In this document: positions 1 through 64,000 of the stretch, piece by piece
Layout: each line of letters begins with the position of its first letter
Numbering within the stretch: the first letter of the stretch is position 1
Assembly: GCA_963829055.1 (NCBI GenBank)
Contig: CAWHHI010000011.1
Coordinates: 576,001 to 640,000, forward strand
Length of the DNA: 64,000 bases
From: an uncultured Gemmatimonadaceae bacterium
Lineage (GTDB): Bacteria > Gemmatimonadota > Gemmatimonadetes > Gemmatimonadales > Gemmatimonadaceae
Reading direction: 5' to 3'
Program-made: the position numbers and the translations under genes
The notes under the pieces: generated by a model
The model's input: only the letters and a program-made list of their open reading frames with translations
Databases searched by the model: none
What the model was told of the DNA's origin: nothing

Positions 1-1588
1 AGATGAGCCCCACGCCAGCGCCCACGCGCGGATTCACCGTGTTACCGAACGGGACGTCACCCGCCCACATCTTCCCCGCGTCGACGAACGCCGCGCCACC
101 GAAGCCCATGTATTTCTTGAACCCCGGGAAGATCAGACGCTCCTCGAGGCGCGCTACCGCGCGGCGACCACCAGCGGTTTTCGACCCCTCGTAGCCACGA
201 ATGCCCACGCGATTCGTGCCTAACTGGAGCTGCATCGGGATCGACGTATTCCACCCACCGGCAAACTCCACGCTCGCGATCTGCGTGCGGCGCCTCGTCG
301 GCCGGTAGTACCAGGCAAGTCGCCCTTCCGTGATCAGGTCGGCCCACTCGCCGTCGGAACGCGATGTCTCGACGTTCGACTGCAGTCCGACGAACGACCG
401 TGGCGTTCCCGCACCGGCGTAGATCTGACTCCCGACGAACCACCCGTTGTTGTCCGATCCGAAACCGCGGCCAATCAACGAGCCGAACTGCATTCCACGC
501 CCGACGTCCTGCGCGCCCTCGAGCGCGTCGAAGCTCGTTGCCTTGAAGAACGAGAGCGCACGCGCGCCGAGGATCGCCGCGATGAGCGGTCTGTCCTGGG
601 TACTGTAGCGAGGCCCGAGCGTCGTGTCGGGATCCGCCACGAAACCCTGCTCGGTAATCACGACACCCTCCTCCGCTGGCGCGATGCGATCGGCGCCGAT
701 CTGCGCGCCGGCGAACAGACCGTAGGAGGTGCGCGTGGAGTTGCCGGCGAAGCGATACACGGCGTTGAGCGCCCAGCTTCGACGCGAGACTTCCAGCGAA
801 AGCGGATCGATGTCCTCACCGCGAACGAACGTCTGGTAGCCGTCGACGTCGGCGTACGTGGCCGACCAGGCGAACCTCTGGATCTGCGAGTAGAGCGGTG
901 CCGACAGGGACCCGGCGATCACCTGACCCAACGGGGAGCGTTCGAGCTGGCCGTCGAACAGGTACGGTTTGCCCAATACGTGGTAGTCGGAGAATCGCGC
1001 CGCCCAGCCGTCGCGAAACGCGAAGCCCTGTTGCCACTGCAGCGTCGCCAACATCCCGTAGCCGGCAACGTTGCCGCTGCCGAGCTTGAGGCGCGTCGGC
1101 TTGTTGTCCTTCACGCCGAGGCCGACGATGGTGCGGATGTCGTCGACGGTCGAGAACGACACGACCACGGTTCCACCGGAATCCGGCGTGACGACCGCCC
1201 GTGCGTCCGCCAGATACGGCTGTGCGCGAAGCACGCGCTCGGACTCGGCCAGCAGGGTTTCGGTGCACGCCGCCCCCTGCCTAACGAGAAGGAACGGCTC
1301 CACGGCCGACACGCGCGTCGGCGCACCGGAGAGCAGGAAGCGCAGCACCGGACGCGACCACCAGGTCGACCGTTCGACGATCACCGGCTCCTGCCGCGAG
1401 ACGATCACCATCGAGATCGTCTCGCCATTGCACCGCGGACCCAGGGCAGCGCGTGCCGCCGTAGTAGCGGTGGTGTCCTGCGCGGACAGCGGATTGGCAC
1501 AAATCGCGAGCGCAGTGACAACCGATGCGCTCACGCCTGATGCGGAGCACACACGAGAACGCACGTGAGAACGCACGTGAAACCGCAC
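1..1588 (-). CDS. Outer-membrane protein, POTRA + beta-barrel (BamA/TamA/Omp85-like); runs off the left edge
   Basis: Not in the ORF track (no stop in window). Manual minus-strand translation gives ...VVTALAICANPLSAQ...FLLVRQGAACTETLLAESERVLRAQPYLADA...STVDDIRT...: a signal peptide and a POTRA-like ESERxLR motif, followed by aromatic-rich beta strands. Start uncertain (GTG 1588 or 1534). Confidence 0.65.
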   Translation of the reverse strand, partial: MRFHVRSHVRSRVCSASGVSASVVTALAICANPLSAQDTTATTAARAALGPRCNGETISMVIVSRQEPVIVERSTWWSRPVLRFLLSGAPTRVSAVEPFLLVRQGAACTETLLAESERVLRAQPYLADARAVVTPDSGGTVVVSFSTVDDIRTIVGLGVKDNKPTRLKLGSGNVAGYGMLATLQWQQGFAFRDGWAARFSDYHVLGKPYLFDGQLERSPLGQVIAGSLSAPLYSQIQRFAWSATYADVDGYQTFVRGEDIDPLSLEVSRRSWALNAVYRFAGNSTRTSYGLFAGAQIGADRIAPAEEGVVITEQGFVADPDTTLGPRYSTQDRPLIAAILGARALSFFKATSFDALEGAQDVGRGMQFGSLIGRGFGSDNNGWFVGSQIYAGAGTPRSFVGLQSNVETSRSDGEWADLITEGRLAWYYRPTRRRTQIASVEFAGGWNTSIPMQLQLGTNRVGIRGYEGSKTAGGRRAVARLEERLIFPGFKKYMGFGGAAFVDAGKMWAGDVPFGNTVNPRVGAGVGLI

Positions 1589-4798: not shown

Positions 4799-5746
4799 AT
4801 GGCTACCGCGTCGGTTCGATCTCGCGCCTCGGCGCAGCGTTCGCCGGGACGGCGTTCGCCCGCCCAAACGCCGCGAACCGGGCGCATTCACGTGGGCACC
4901 GCGGGCTGGCTGTATCGCGACTGGGAGGGTGTGCTGTACCCGAAGCCGCACCCGCGTGGCTTCGACCCACTCGCATACCTCGCGCGCTACGTCGACGTGG
5001 TCGAGGTCAACTCCACGTTCTATCGACCCGTCGACGCTGACGTCGCGCGTCGGTGGGTCGACCGCGTGACTGACGCGTCCGACTTCAGGTTCACGACGAA
5101 GCTCTGGAAGCGATTCACGCACGAGCGCGACACGGCGTTCACGCGAACGGAAGTGTCCACCGTGCAGCGCGGACTCCGCCCGCTGCATAACGCGGGGAAG
5201 CTGGGTGCGCTGCTCCTGCAGTTTCCGTGGTCGTTCCGGAGGAACGAAGCGAACCAGCAATGGCTCGAGGATCTCGCCAACGCGTTCGAGGAATTCCCGC
5301 TCGCGGTGGAGGTCCGCCACGCGTCGTGGGCGGTACCGGAGTTCTACGGCGAGCTCGCAGAGCGTGGCATCGGCTTCGTGAACATCGACCAGCCGCTGTT
5401 CCGCCACTCCGTCAAGCCGAGCGCGACGGCGACGGCGCGGGTGGGCTACGTCCGCATTCACGGCCGCAACTACCGCGAGTGGTTCCGCAAGGACGCGGGC
5501 GTGGAGGCGCGTTATGACTACCTGTATTCGCCGGCCGAGCTGGCGCCGTGGGCGGAGCGGAGCGTTCAGGTCGCGGAGAGTGGCGCGGACGACGTCTACG
5601 CGATCACGAACAACCACTACCAGGCGAAGGCGGCAGTGAACGCGATTCAGCTGGCGAGCATGGTACGCGACGAGCCAGTGCCAGCACCGGAGACACTCTA
5701 CGCATCGTACGAGGATCAGTTGGCTGCGTGGGCATACCCCGAGTAG
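4799..5746 (+). CDS. DUF72 (YecE-like) TIM-barrel protein
   Basis: GTAGW, VEVNSTFY, LLQFP, VEVRH, YVRIHGRN, RYDYLYS motifs. Confidence 0.9.
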   Translation: MATASVRSRASAQRSPGRRSPAQTPRTGRIHVGTAGWLYRDWEGVLYPKPHPRGFDPLAYLARYVDVVEVNSTFYRPVDADVARRWVDRVTDASDFRFTTKLWKRFTHERDTAFTRTEVSTVQRGLRPLHNAGKLGALLLQFPWSFRRNEANQQWLEDLANAFEEFPLAVEVRHASWAVPEFYGELAERGIGFVNIDQPLFRHSVKPSATATARVGYVRIHGRNYREWFRKDAGVEARYDYLYSPAELAPWAERSVQVAESGADDVYAITNNHYQAKAAVNAIQLASMVRDEPVPAPETLYASYEDQLAAWAYPE

Positions 5747-5929
5747 TACGACGCTGCGAGCGACTGGGCACATCGCCGACGGCTGCCATGCTGCGGCCGC
5801 ACGCTGCCCGCTGCTGCTAGTACGCTCGGTCGACCCACGCGCTGACTCGCAGCGCACTCAGCGTCACCCAGCAACCAGCACGACCACCCAGCAACCAGCC
5901 GCAGTTCCAGTCCCCAGTCCCCAGTCCAC

Positions 5930-6722
5930 CTAACGCTTCGTCAGTAACTCCTCGAACAGCGCAATCGCACGCGGGTCGTTCGACTGGCCGAGCCAGAACA
6001 CCGCATCACGGCGCACCTCGGGGTCCTTGTGCGTGCGCGCCACGCGAATGAGGATCGGGATGCCCTCGTCGTGCGGACGCTGCGACAGCGCGAACACGAC
6101 CTGCTTCTGCACCTCACGATCGCTATCGCCGTCACGCGAGAGCGAGTCGAGGCCTGACGTCGCCGCATCGCCCGCCGCCTGGCCGAGCCAGAAGACCGCC
6201 TGCTTCCGCGTCTCGCGCGGACGATTCTCATCGCGCGCCAGGCGGATGAGTGCCGGCCAGATCACCGCACTGTCGGCGATCGTCGCGGGGAAGATCGCGT
6301 CGCGACCCGCTCGCCCGGGGAGCTTCGTCGCGAGCGACAGCAGGTAGTCCGCTGCCTCCTTCGCTGGCACCGTGCCAATGTCGGTCACGTCAGAGCCGGC
6401 AGCGCGCCAACGTCCGCCGACCACGAAGCGAAGCGCCACGATCTCCCCGTCGCGCTTCTCGAGTACCAGACGCCCCGGACCGTAGTCGCACGCATTGTCC
6501 CACTCGACGTCACGCGTACGGTCGTTGTCGCCCCAATTATTCCGCCAGTTGTTCCCTCGGCTGATACTACCGCGGTTCCCGCAGTACTCGGGGCGCACGG
6601 CGAAGCTGAGTCGCACCGTGCCGTCGCCAGCACGCGAGACACGGTCCGCGATGGACTGCGCGGCGAGCGTGGATGCGCTGGAAGCAGCGAACGCCAGCAG
6701 TTACGAGATATCGTCGCATCAT
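5930..6722 (-). CDS. Exported HEAT-repeat protein 3 (frameshift near 6701)
   Basis: Repeated AVFWLGQ units. The signal peptide MMRRYLV/LLAFAASSASTLAAQ is restored by removing one base; ATG overlaps the upstream stop. Confidence 0.8.
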
Positions 6723-60650: not shown

Positions 60651-62801
60651 CTATCGCCCCACAGAGATCGTCATTCCCGCATAGACGGTCCGCCCAGGCG
60701 AGGGCTCGAAGTAGCGGCCAGCCGCAGCATTCACCACGATCGACCCCGCATACGCGCGGTCGAACAGATTCGACACACCGAACACCGGCACCAGCGCCAT
60801 CCCCGCAACCGTCACACGCCCACCGATCCGCGCGTTCGCCACCTCCCAACCACCCGCGCGCAGCGTGTTCGCGTCGTCCATGAACATCCCGCCCGCTGTC
60901 TGTCCTTCCACCGTCCCGAACCAGCCGCGCCAGTTGTACGTCACGTAGCCTTGCAACTGCTGGTTAGGCACGCCCGGAATCGTGTTCCCACTGAAGTCGT
61001 TCGCGCCGACGGTGTAGTCCTCGAACGCGAAGTCCGAATAGCTGTACGACGCACCGATCGTCGTCGCGCCTAACGCCGATGCCAGGCCCAGCTCGCCGCC
61101 GCGCCGCCGCGTCGACCCCGCGTTCCGGAAGTACCGCCGCCCCGCCCCGCCCGGCACCTCGAATGGAATGAGCTCGTCCCTGACGCGCGTCGCGAACAGC
61201 GCCGCGTCATAGCGCAGTCTACCGAACGCTACTCCTTTCACCCCCGCCTCGAACGTGGTCGCGTACTGCGGGTCGAGCGTCGGGTTGATCCCCGCGGAGC
61301 CATCGGGCTTGTTCGCGAGCTCCGTCGCCGTCGGCGTCTCGAACGCGGTCGAGAGGTTCGCGTACACGGAGTGCAGCGCGCCGACGCGCGCGACGAGGCC
61401 GACCAGCGGGCTCACCGCGTGCAGCGTGCGCTCGCCCGAGTCGTCCGGATTCGTCGCCGTGATGAGGTGATCGCCGACCCGGAACTGCACGTAGTCGGCG
61501 CGCACGCCTAACGTCAGACGGTAGCGGTCCGAGAATGCGATCTCGTCCCGCACGAACGGCCCGAGCCCCGAGACCCGCTCACGCTGGTCGAGCTGCACCA
61601 CGCCGCGCTCACGCGAGACGACGGGACACGCCGCCGTCGGCTGCGTGAGCGGCGGCACGAAGTTGCAGTTCGCGAAGTTCTTGCGCTCGTCGTCCTGAAA
61701 CTGCGCGTCCATGCCCGCACTCACACGATGGTCGAGCCCGAGGAAGCGAACCGGAACGGTCACGCGCGCGTTTGCACCGGACGTCGTGCGGTCGACATCC
61801 ACGATCGCGAACGTGAGCGGATTGTCGAGCGTGCGCCAACCGAAGTGCGCCGCGGCGGACCACTCCACCCCGCTCGACGAGCGTCGGTTCGCGGTCAGGC
61901 CGAGCTGCGACTGCTGCACCGCCTTGCGCGTCGCCTTCCGGATCTGCGCCGGATCCGCCTGACGCGGATCACTCTTCATCTCGGCCGCCGTGAGCGCGCC
62001 CGGATTCTCCGCCGTCGGCGTGTCGTACCCGGTGTACGTGAGCGCGAGATCGCCGGCCTCGCCCGACAGCATCGCCCGCGCCGTCCCACTCGTGGATTGT
62101 TGCCGAGCGTAGAGGCGGTACCCGTCCTGGTCGGTGCGCGAGAGGTCACCCTGGTACTGAATCGCACCCGCCGTCCCACCGGCAGCGCCCGCCCAACGCT
62201 TCAGGCCATACGAACCGCCAGTCCCCGTCACACGACCCGCGATCGCGTCAGATGGCGGATCCGCCGTGCGAACCTCGACGACTCCGCCCGCCGCGTTTCC
62301 GTACAGAGAGCCCGCGCTCCCACGAATGACCTCGATGCTCCCAACCGACTCGAGATCGAGGTAGTCGATGGGCGTCTGCCCATCGGGTAGCGTGAGCGGA
62401 ATGCCGTCGCGCACCACCCGAACGCCGCGCACGCCGAACGCCGATCGCGCGCCGAAGCCTCGGATGGAGATGCGCGGGTCCTGCGTGGGGTTGCTCCGGT
62501 TGGCAACGGCGAGGCCCGGGATCGCCAGCAGCATCTCGTCGAACGAGACATGACGGAGAGACGGTCGGCCACTGTCCGGCACAATCCGCGAGATCGCGTA
62601 CGGGAGGTCGAGCGTCGGGCGCGCGGCGTCACGCGTGACGGTGACCTGCACGGGCGGCAGCGTCGACGGCCGCGGTCTGGGCGGCGTGGTGTCTTGCTGT
62701 GCGTCGAGGCGGTGCGTGATGCCGACACTCATCGACGCAACACACAGCGCGGTGATGTTGAGCCCCGTGAACCTTCGACCCGCGAACGTCTGTATCGGCA
62801 C
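60651..62801 (-). CDS. TonB-dependent receptor, YncD/PqqU-like
   Basis: QDPRISIRGFGARSAFGVRGVRVVRDGIPLTLPDGQ, EVIRG..SLYGNAAGGV, FETPTATEL, YFEPSPGR; start uncertain. Confidence 0.85.
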   Translation of the reverse strand: MPIQTFAGRRFTGLNITALCVASMSVGITHRLDAQQDTTPPRPRPSTLPPVQVTVTRDAARPTLDLPYAISRIVPDSGRPSLRHVSFDEMLLAIPGLAVANRSNPTQDPRISIRGFGARSAFGVRGVRVVRDGIPLTLPDGQTPIDYLDLESVGSIEVIRGSAGSLYGNAAGGVVEVRTADPPSDAIAGRVTGTGGSYGLKRWAGAAGGTAGAIQYQGDLSRTDQDGYRLYARQQSTSGTARAMLSGEAGDLALTYTGYDTPTAENPGALTAAEMKSDPRQADPAQIRKATRKAVQQSQLGLTANRRSSSGVEWSAAAHFGWRTLDNPLTFAIVDVDRTTSGANARVTVPVRFLGLDHRVSAGMDAQFQDDERKNFANCNFVPPLTQPTAACPVVSRERGVVQLDQRERVSGLGPFVRDEIAFSDRYRLTLGVRADYVQFRVGDHLITATNPDDSGERTLHAVSPLVGLVARVGALHSVYANLSTAFETPTATELANKPDGSAGINPTLDPQYATTFEAGVKGVAFGRLRYDAALFATRVRDELIPFEVPGGAGRRYFRNAGSTRRRGGELGLASALGATTIGASYSYSDFAFEDYTVGANDFSGNTIPGVPNQQLQGYVTYNWRGWFGTVEGQTAGGMFMDDANTLRAGGWEVANARIGGRVTVAGMALVPVFGVSNLFDRAYAGSIVVNAAAGRYFEPSPGRTVYAGMTISVGR

Positions 62802-63100
62802 GCGATGCCTTGATACTGGTGCAGTGGTATGTCCGCCGAGCACCGATTCCGAACGTTTCTCGACACGTGTTCGAATCGTGTTCAACGCGGGTTCGAGCGC
62901 CGGCGAAGCTGCAGGCGGTCTCGGACCCGTGCAACCCCTGTGCAACCCTGATGCTGGATTGCGGCGGCCGCGCAACTCGGGCTACCCACAGTGTTCAGTG
63001 CGTTCGCCAGGCGCTACAGTATCGAAGTTGCCGTCGCTCACTTTCACCTGTCCGGCCGCGCGCAGCGTGGCAACGCCGGCCCGTACACGCGGAGAACTCG

Positions 63101-63409
63101 ATGACGAATCCTCGCCCACCACGGAAGCACGTGATCACGCACGAAGAAGCGGTCGCACAGCTGAGCCGCCGTCCGAAGGAGCTGAAAGAGCGAGGCGGTC
63201 ACTTTCCTCGCGAAGCCATCGAGCAGATCCTCGCGCAGCCGGGTTGCGCCAGCATTCGCTTCTACTTCGGGACCAAGACAGACGGTTCCCTGGCGGTCGT
63301 GATGGTCGGTATGGACGAGAACGAGAAAGACATGACCGCCGGCGTCATCATCGAGGATCACTATCCCTGCCCACCATTCTGCGACGCGACGAGCAGCCTG
63401 ATTCGGTAG
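63101..63409 (+). CDS. Small hypothetical protein with IRFYFG and C-terminal CPPFC motifs
   Basis: GGAG RBS, ATG 63101, 102 aa. Confidence 0.8.
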   Translation: MTNPRPPRKHVITHEEAVAQLSRRPKELKERGGHFPREAIEQILAQPGCASIRFYFGTKTDGSLAVVMVGMDENEKDMTAGVIIEDHYPCPPFCDATSSLIR

Positions 63410-63410
63410 C

Positions 63411-64000
63411 ATGGGCAGTAGACTGCTCGCATTCGTTGTAGACGTGGCGCAGATCGCTTCCGCTGACGGCGCACACCGCTCATCCTCCACGCTGCTGCGT
63501 TATCCCAGGCACTGCCGGTTCTCGCGGGGCTTCGTCATGGTCGGCGACTTCCGGCAGCGCGATTGCTGGACCATCGCGTGGTGCGTGGCGCTCATGGTCG
63601 GCGACGGCGCGCAGCTCTGGTGGCGAGGTGGCGAGCGGCACGAACAATCTCTGGCTTCAGGCAGCTGGCAACTCCGCTTCAGAACGCGATCATGCTGTGG
63701 ACGTTGTCGCTCTGGCAGCGTCACGCGGTGTCGCGACTCGCCTTTCGCATCGCAATTCCGCTGTTCCTCGTCACCGTCCTGGCGCTCATCCCGACCGTCA
63801 GCGACACGTCGGACGTTCGATACCGTCACCGACCGTTTCAGGCGTTGGTCCTTCTCGCGGGCGCGTTGTATACGCTCGTACGGAACGCGGCGAGCGAACC
63901 GGGCGACGTCACACGCCAGGACTGGTTCTGGATCACGCTCGGCACATCGCTGTACTTCGCGATGCGCGTCGCGCTACCGCCGTTCGCTGCGATCCTGATG
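63411..64000 (+). CDS. Multi-pass membrane protein (several frameshifts; runs off the right edge)
   Basis: Segments pieced across frames: LSQALPVLAG, WTIAWCVALMVGD, TNNLWL, AIMLWTLSLWQ, RIAIPLFLVTVLAL, FQALVLLAGALYTL, DWFWITLGTSLYF. Confidence 0.65.

Follow-up and report, generated by a model that had tools for sequence, protein, structure and literature searches.

The stretch of DNA analysed here (the window, 64,000 nucleotides) comes from an uncultured Gemmatimonadaceae bacterium and covers positions 576001-640000 of contig C11 (GenBank CAWHHI010000011.1). At its right-hand edge, a gene for a small protein with a C-terminal PCPPFC motif is followed by a gene for a multi-pass membrane protein, and the initial annotation had read this pair as a candidate peptide-signalling circuit. 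We lean, without great confidence, to reading the locus as a copy of a conserved operon of four genes, whose small protein and membrane protein (hereafter the 7TM protein, for its seven predicted transmembrane helices) are likely the joint, detachable input module of its histidine kinase, which lacks a sensor domain. Neither input protein is catalogued in the families searched (Pfam, NCBIfam and PADLOC), and the cassette is widespread but has no name.

The small-protein gene, the first of the cassette, lies at 63101-63409 on the forward strand. Its translated open reading frame (ORF) agrees exactly with the signal-less 102-residue protein quoted in the initial annotation, carrying ...REAIEQILAQPGCASIRFYFG...VVMVGMD... 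and the C-terminal end EDHYPCPPFCDATSSLIR; no hydrophobic N-terminal stretch is present in the protein, nor in an in-frame upstream extension to 62810. The TAG stop codon (63407-63409) is separated by one nucleotide from an ATG at 63411 (TAG-c-ATG), where the 7TM gene begins. The window holds the first 590 nt of that gene (63411-64000, forward strand), as judged from three-frame translation and tblastn comparison with relatives; the gene runs on to 64129, past the window edge, and its frame is broken within the window. A sigma-70 promoter scan returned no hits.

A further 14 kb was fetched across the edge, and positions there are given on the extended window (position in the fetched sequence, L002, plus 62000). 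The 7TM frame ends at 64129 in a TGA that overlaps the ATG of the next gene (TGATG), a junction seen in a relative as well. This gene (about 64129-64869, forward strand) encodes a kinase of 247 residues with a single transmembrane helix and Pfam domains HisKA_3 and HATPase_c, the latter at 46.1 bits (E 7.7e-12, cut-off 26.4), and the H-box EVHDD is present in its translation. Some 10 nt after the kinase gene begins a regulator gene (about 64880-65518, forward strand) whose product is of the NarL/LuxR type, with Response_reg at 89.6 bits and GerE at 57.2 bits. The kinase and response regulator that had been suspected to the right of the window are both there, just beyond the edge, and the locus includes a two-component system of HisKA_3 kinase and NarL/LuxR regulator. 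The HisKA_3 domain starts at residue 43 of 247, preceded only by about 25 hydrophobic N-terminal residues and a linker of about 20, and the best NCBIfam matches of the kinase (MctS, UhpB, NarX and LiaS) align with it only in their C-terminal halves, so that the kinase has no sensor domain of its own.

The cassette and its two candidate input families

Among eleven loci located by tblastn in related genomes (L004-L014), the small-protein gene is followed by a 7TM gene in ten and by a kinase gene as well in nine; the sequence of one of the eleven, L011, ends early. A single-protein query found small-protein homologues in 15 of 41 related genomes (13 of 31 among those of high quality), and a profile search of sampled genomes of the phylum found them in 39 of 301, so that the distribution is patchy. 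A scan of species representatives, seeded with a narrower alignment (A4) and hence biased towards forms without a leader peptide, yielded 70 loci from Gemmatimonadota, Bacteroidota, Ignavibacteria, one Zixibacteria metagenome-assembled genome (MAG) and a few MAGs with other labels. The Bacteroidota carriers include Chitinophaga, Spirosoma, Fibrisoma, Hymenobacter, Chryseobacterium, Crocinitomix and others.

Sixty of the 70 loci have at least 2300 nt downstream and are usable for gene order, and in 58 of them the order small protein, 7TM protein, kinase and regulator is kept. A same-strand kinase and regulator were detected in 57 with hidden Markov models built here, and L063 was added by Pfam (a PAS-HisKA kinase and a LuxR regulator); the exceptions are L071 and L096. 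The kinase model begins 634-780 nt past the end of the small-protein gene in 46 of 61 loci, which leaves space for a 7TM gene only. This degree of conservation answers the neighbourhood check that the initial annotation had called for, and similar gene pairs upstream of a kinase and regulator do occur in Bacteroidota, as it stated.

In none of the 70 loci is the 7TM protein in one frame with either the small protein or the kinase; longer, fused 7TM homologues were not found either, which is weak evidence. At L068 (3587-7075) the order is small-7TM-small-7TM-kinase-regulator, the pair having been duplicated in tandem as a unit, and in two same-genus relatives (G003 and G004) two small-protein genes stand ahead of one 7TM gene. 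Leader-bearing homologues show the same arrangement, with the 7TM gene following the small-protein gene in all 11 loci examined in full. In ten leader-bearing loci the next ORF was searched against Pfam; HATPase_c was present in all ten, and the ORF after the 7TM gene overlaps the 7TM stop codon or starts at most 50 nt from it in eight. Nine of the ten are kinases adjoining the 7TM gene; L143, the tenth locus, instead has a CHASE3 kinase that is unrelated and located farther downstream. PAS domains occur in seven of the nine adjoining kinases, HisKA in five and HisKA_3 in two, and loci L063 and L066 from the scan are cassettes of this same kind. The pair therefore precedes kinases of different classes (PAS-less HisKA_3, PAS-HisKA_3 and PAS-HisKA), and the small protein and the 7TM protein are a module standing before single-helix kinases. 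The idea of an eight-helix kinase split in two was rejected: the C-terminus of the 7TM protein is predicted to be inside and the kinase helix runs from out to in, so that a simple fission does not fit, and no fused form was seen in the 70 loci.

A profile search with the small protein gathered 2758 clusters (representatives at 50 % identity) at E<=1e-3, of which 1146 reached E<=1e-10. The family alignment holds 216 domains from 149 representatives, many relatives being natural tandem fusions of two domains, with one CPPxC motif thus lying in mid-chain. The best-conserved positions are Q47, R54, Y56, G71, D78 and C91-P92-P93-x-C95. Bacteroidota members have CPRHC, CPQHC, CPYNC, CPAIC or CPPWC at the last of these, which reduces the core motif to C-P-x-x-C. 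The tail beyond the motif is patterned rather than hypervariable, with N or S at 99, L at 101 (119 of 122 non-gap rows) and N at 102. Two helices and a three-stranded sheet make up the predicted fold. Two resemblances were considered and set aside. A thioredoxin-like CxxC redox protein agrees neither with the motif, which spaces its cysteines by three residues, nor with the Pfam results (no thioredoxin-type family); the fold searches gave no clear match of any kind. A likeness to PAS/LOV domains appeared in many weak Foldseek rows, but with template-modelling (TM) scores below 0.3, and was not counted.

The 7TM protein was modelled with high confidence (predicted local distance difference test, pLDDT, 91.1; predicted TM score 0.86) from a 33-row alignment (A5) with L017 as its first row. 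The predicted helices are 23-41, 48-73, 79-99, 104-128, 138-160, 169-195 and 199-225, and a short extra N-terminal helix is confined to this genus. Lysine and arginine average 3.67, 1.85, 2.18 and 2.12 per sequence in loops 1, 3 and 5 and the C-terminus, and 0.8-1.0 in the N-terminus and loops 2, 4 and 6, which places the former set inside and gives an N-out/C-in topology. The NNLW motif falls in the second loop, predicted to be outer, and FW..G...Y begins at the inner end of helix 6. In 29 of the 33 sequences the second N of NNLW is kept, and the F and the W of FW are each kept in 29 as well. The alignment contains no conserved His, Cys, Ser, Asp or Glu, and the 7TM protein is therefore unlikely to be an enzyme.

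Among the 50 matches listed by a VIA structural search with the 7TM model, all but one designed nanocage are seven-helix bundles of receptor type, mostly G-protein-coupled receptors (GPCRs) or microbial rhodopsins, with two designed GPCR-like folds. The Z values run from 10.1 to 13.3 over about 200 aligned residues at root-mean-square deviations (rmsd) of 4-5 Å, the best being 13.3 at an rmsd of 4.2 over 202 residues; with Foldseek the best E was 8.9e-3 and TM scores were 0.45-0.54. On the evidence of the model, the protein has a helix arrangement like that of GPCRs and rhodopsins, which does not show kinship, and the sequence search found no relation to them. The earlier description of a receptor-like multi-pass membrane protein agrees with this receptor-shaped model.

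Database searches add little to either family. The small protein matched no family in Pfam, NCBIfam or PADLOC, with Pfam and NCBIfam thresholds as lax as E<=1 to 10. For two intact 7TM proteins, no Pfam family was found at E<=10, including 7TMR-DISM_7TM and other catalogued membrane sensor domains, and NCBIfam and PADLOC gave no match. Neither protein has a match below E 0.1 among sequences of the Protein Data Bank, and the ESM Atlas neighbours of both are unnamed clusters only. The match to a known enzyme family that would have spoken against a signalling role was not seen for either protein in Pfam or NCBIfam. NCBI and UniRef label the Spirosoma and Fibrisoma members of both families 'hypothetical' or 'uncharacterized', and a literature search on the motif, on these members and on accessory proteins of HisKA_3 kinases, covering titles and the beginnings of abstracts, found nothing relevant.

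Roles proposed for the input pair

How might two such proteins act on the kinase? If they form its input module, the 7TM protein would perceive a membrane or extracytoplasmic cue and relay it through contacts with the lone N-terminal transmembrane helix of the kinase. The small protein would bind the 7TM-kinase complex and tune it, acting at this locus from the cytoplasm, where the lack of an export signal would place it, and its invariant Cys-Pro-x-x-Cys pair could be a site for thiol chemistry or for a metal. The regulator would then control transcription, probably including that of its own operon. A kinase that lacks a sensor domain depends on a partner for what it senses, and only a few partners of this sort are known, most of them from Firmicutes. 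Here, two uncatalogued families precede sensorless kinases in poorly studied soil and water phyla, one of them a stand-alone, GPCR-like seven-helix protein. If the pair is indeed a kinase input module, it would be a new and widely used route by which signals enter two-component systems, and one that needs little genetic space; culturable carriers exist, for example Spirosoma and Fibrisoma species.

Upstream DNA in relatives is consistent with autoregulation. Many Gemmatimonadales relatives have a strong palindrome some 80 nt ahead of the small-protein gene. The palindrome GGACTATGGGATCTCATAGTCT or near-identical forms of it occur in 8 of the 10 loci L029-L038, where the palindromes are near-perfect, 22 bp long and of the type GGACTATGGGATCCCATAGTCT, and where another one frequently lies 30-50 nt further upstream; different palindromes lie at the same distance in L039, L052, L055 and L051. 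Such sites would fit binding by a dimeric NarL/LuxR regulator and autoregulation of the operon. The window has no such upstream palindrome. At 62860-62896, between the gene for a TonB-dependent receptor and the small-protein gene, it contains three direct copies of TCGAnnCGTGTTCGA spaced by 11 nt, which may be an operator array; the closely related contigs L015 and L017 have four units, the extra one appearing as a 10-nt gap in the window. Two adjoining 11-nt direct repeats, CCyGTGCAACC, lie at 62926-62947. The TonB-dependent receptor-like ORF (60651-62975, reverse strand) is divergent from the cassette and also accompanies it in the same-genus locus L004 and in L015, not in more distant cassettes.

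Several results weigh against an input module with a cytoplasmic small protein. The HisKA_3 match of the kinase, at 23.7 bits (E 7.3e-5), falls just below the 24-bit Pfam cut-off. The model of the small protein is of moderate quality (pLDDT 70.3, with a core at residues 37-85 of 81-92 and a tail below 50), and it found no match among solved folds (best Foldseek E 0.19, best VIA Z 2.9). The GPCR-like Z values of the 7TM model lie in a range that the mere arrangement of a helical bundle can produce. Two residues that might have joined the cysteine pair in a metal site are not universal: H9 is found in 154 of 171 non-gap rows and is missing in several Bacteroidota members, and the third cysteine, C50, occurs in only 135 of 216 domains. 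A zinc site made of the histidine and three cysteines was dropped for these reasons. A further difficulty concerns compartment. A Sec signal, lipobox or N-terminal anchor precedes the same domain in 38 of the 149 family representatives, and in a Bacteroidota sample of 34 loci, 13 small-protein hits carry a leader, 11 of them with a 7TM gene directly behind. By these leaders, the small domain is extracytoplasmic in such cassettes, while the topology of the 7TM protein looks alike, and this fits poorly with the role of a cytoplasmic partner in the window.

The alternative that survives best, though we still think it unlikely, takes up this difficulty directly. Here the leaderless small protein would somehow reach the external side of the membrane, where its leader-bearing relatives must act, and would cap the 7TM protein there as a co-sensor in the periplasm, on the pattern of the lipoprotein SaeP and SaeQ. 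The leaderless proteins begin at the very position, (P)xxDHxI(S/T)L, at which the mature portion of leader-bearing proteins begins, and the cassette is otherwise alike in the two classes. In addition, Cys-x3-Cys pairs are typical of oxidising compartments. The window protein, however, has no known export signal, and the cassette contains no transport gene. Moreover, the leader-bearing cassettes go with PAS kinases (the seven of nine adjoining kinases mentioned above, together with L063 and L066), whereas the leaderless ones are mostly PAS-less (46 of 61), so that the two classes may work differently.

An input module is also to be weighed against a self-made signal and its receptor, which is the original proposal in protein or peptide form and which we regard as improbable, somewhat more so than the outer-face co-sensor. 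On this view the small protein would be released from the cell, either whole or as a fragment closed by a Cys-x3-Cys disulfide, and the 7TM protein would detect it on the producing cell or on sister cells, which would make the circuit autoinducing. Homologues with Sec or lipoprotein leaders do occur in the same cassette, the conserved NNLW motif sits in a loop predicted to be extracytoplasmic, and the palindromes upstream of the operon in relatives would permit autoinduction. The window protein nevertheless has no leader, and its Gemmatimonadota relatives are mostly leaderless, with a leader in only 3 of 72 hits. The genes flanking the cassette vary by lineage, and among 124 flanking ORFs of 34 loci there is no recurrent exporter, ABC exporter, peptidase or maturase. 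Nor does the 7TM protein have any of the conserved, potentially catalytic residues that were looked for.

The specific suggestion that the small protein is the precursor of a processed, disulfide-closed CPPFC peptide finds no support. In addition to the lack of an export signal and of a recurring exporter, peptidase or maturase beside the cassette, conservation extends across the whole domain of about 100 residues (H9, Q47, R54, Y56, D78 and CPPxC), the tail is patterned, and tandem two-domain fusions exist. The same full-length conservation and fusions, together with the flanking ORFs, do not agree with an exported peptide precursor in general, including a ribosomally synthesized and post-translationally modified peptide. 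The whole protein may still act outside the cytoplasm, as a partner or as a signal, given its leader-bearing relatives.

Strain variation at the locus bears on the signal-receptor alternative in both directions. Three metagenome contigs (L015, L016 and L017) come from essentially the same species as the window, with small proteins 96-97 % identical and syntenic flanks. Nucleotide differences among these near-identical contigs are 0.9-1.9 % in the kinase gene and 0.3-1.6 % in the regulator gene, and far higher in the genes for the small protein and the 7TM protein. Between L015 and L017, for instance, they amount to 10.4 % in the small-protein gene, 16.8 % in the 7TM gene, 0.9 % in the kinase gene and 1.3 % in the regulator gene; the window differs from L015 by 9.1 % in each of the two input genes. 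The divergent island extends from about 63000 to about 64050. An island of this kind among near-identical strains recalls pherotype loci. Its codon differences between L015 and L017, however, are mostly synonymous (24 synonymous to 7 non-synonymous in the small-protein gene, 69 to 32 in the 7TM gene), and the proteins remain 93 % identical, with a single tail change, and 86.5 % identical, respectively. Such a pattern is that of long-standing alleles kept by purifying selection and not that of a signal subject to diversifying selection. The window kinase gene (L002 2130-2869) shows an odd ratio of its own: against L015 and L017 it has 8 non-synonymous and only 1-2 synonymous codon differences, at 1.2-1.4 % divergence.

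A broader version of the signal-receptor idea earns marginally less credence again. It would make the two proteins a signal and its matched receptor, portable as a pair. Throughout the Fibrobacteres-Chlorobi-Bacteroidetes group of phyla the pair would plug into single-helix kinases belonging to several classes, and within a species it would be maintained as deeply divergent allele pairs against a background that is otherwise identical. If this were true, the matched pair would amount to strain-specific signalling (of a kin-recognition or pherotype-like type) of a kind not described in Gram-negative bacteria.

The interrupted reading frame in the window

The window copy of the 7TM gene is not one open frame. 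Segments of the membrane protein are spread over all three forward frames: MGSRLL (63411) and WTIAWCVALMVGDGAQLWW (63567-63623) in one, NNLW (63643-63654) in a second, and PLILHAAALSQ (63476), IMLWTLSLWQ (63689) and WFWITLGTSLYF (63923-63958) in the third. The signal from GC content at third codon positions changes frame along with these segments. Alignment to L015, L016 and L017 locates the disruption to six 1-nt insertions, near 63452, 63465, 63565, 63632, 63670 and 63808, and one 1-nt deletion near 63830 (63452-63830, forward strand; placement accurate to about 3 nt). The spacing of 1 nt after the small-protein gene, given in the initial annotation, is borne out by the ATG at 63411. NNLW and WFWI..LG.SLYF, which it gave as motifs of one protein, do belong to one intact protein in the relatives and are hallmarks of the family; in the window itself there is no single frame, and the two motifs lie in different ones.

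In L015, L016 and L017 the 7TM ORF is intact, with 237 codons and a start ATG 1 nt past the stop of the small-protein gene. Intact orthologues lie at 2992-3705 of L015, 616-1326 of L017 and 826-1491 (reverse strand) of L004, and the same-genus relatives G003 and G004 have a single intact ORF of 221 residues at this position. Programmed frameshifting was dropped as an explanation, with seven indels present here and one frame in the relatives.

Is the gene simply dead? A decaying cassette with seven real frameshifts is what the assembly says at face value, and no start codon in the main frame follows the stop at 63461-63463. Even so, this is the least likely of the alternatives that we have graded, and a very doubtful one. 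The seven indels fall within 380 nt, yet the small-protein, kinase and regulator genes are intact. When columns found only in the window are dropped and an X stands for the deleted base, a comparison with L017 shows 30 synonymous and 11 non-synonymous codon differences, a ratio that reflects purifying selection and not decay. L015 and L017 themselves carry two deeply different alleles of this gene. Of the 168 sites that separate them, the window matches the L015 base at 55 and the L017 base at 111, and has a private substitution at only 2; the matching allele switches every one to four variable sites inside the 7TM gene. Considering that a natural third allele should show private changes and a natural recombinant only a few switches, we read the window version as a two-allele consensus. 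Another MAG locus, L030, is fragmented likewise, its 7TM and kinase genes (5351-6686) each being split into three or four frame fragments in a way that resembles the indel damage in the window.

The most likely explanation, judging from these site patterns, is that the breaks are consensus errors produced when divergent alleles of co-occurring strains were collapsed, rather than marks of a dead gene. Over the 5.4 kb shared with L015, the sole other 1-nt indel is an insertion at 65707 of the extended window (L002 3707), which suggests sporadic indel errors elsewhere in the assembly. That insertion, seen against L015, L016 and L017 alike, lies outside the cassette in the next ORF downstream of the regulator gene and alters the N-terminus of that ORF. 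The broken 7TM gene of this genome should not be taken as a pseudogene without a check of the reads.

Relation to known systems

How does the cassette compare with systems in which small proteins and membrane proteins feed a kinase? The agrBDCA and ComQXPA operons serve peptide quorum sensing, and ComP and ComA are a HisKA_3 kinase and a NarL-type regulator, respectively. The cassette resembles them in that a small first-gene product stands beside a polytopic membrane protein, a kinase and a regulator, and in that the input genes form a divergent island while the kinase and regulator genes are conserved. It differs in having no processing enzyme like AgrB or ComQ, a receptor that is not fused to the kinase in any of the 70 loci, and a small protein that is a conserved, folded domain of about 100 residues, also found in tandem fusions; in addition, the divergence of the island is mainly synonymous. 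The locus does not fit quorum sensing of the agr type: neither protein has a Pfam match, and the 7TM protein has no conserved residue of catalytic type and is fused to the kinase in none of the 70 loci.

The 7TMR-DISM receptors, in which seven-helix modules are fused to kinases or cyclases, offer a precedent for a bacterial seven-helix module feeding a histidine kinase, as is proposed for the cassette. The cassette protein, in contrast, stands alone at all 70 loci and is not recognized by the Pfam models even at the laxest threshold used.

Two further parallels come from Firmicutes. In SaePQRS of Staphylococcus aureus, four genes encode two accessory proteins that act on a sensorless kinase, together with that kinase and its regulator, although SaeS and SaeR are not of the HisKA_3/NarL type. 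The cassette has the same set of parts: a small protein (a lipoprotein in many cassette relatives), a polytopic membrane protein, a sensorless kinase and a regulator. There is no sequence relation between the two systems, the small protein of the window has no lipobox, and the membrane protein of the cassette has seven helices.

LiaFSR and VraTSR pair an intramembrane-type HisKA_3 kinase, devoid of an extracytoplasmic sensor, with a NarL-family regulator, and they need a separate membrane protein encoded in the same operon. All three of these features recur in the cassette, whose kinase lacks an extracytoplasmic sensor domain, whose regulator is of the NarL family and whose membrane protein is separately encoded in the operon. 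The accessory proteins are nonetheless unrelated by sequence, with no LiaF or VraT homologue among the Pfam and NCBIfam results. The cassette instead has a seven-helix, GPCR-shaped partner, one kinase transmembrane helix rather than two, and a second, small partner with a cysteine motif, and it is carried by Gemmatimonadota, Bacteroidota and Ignavibacteria rather than by Firmicutes.

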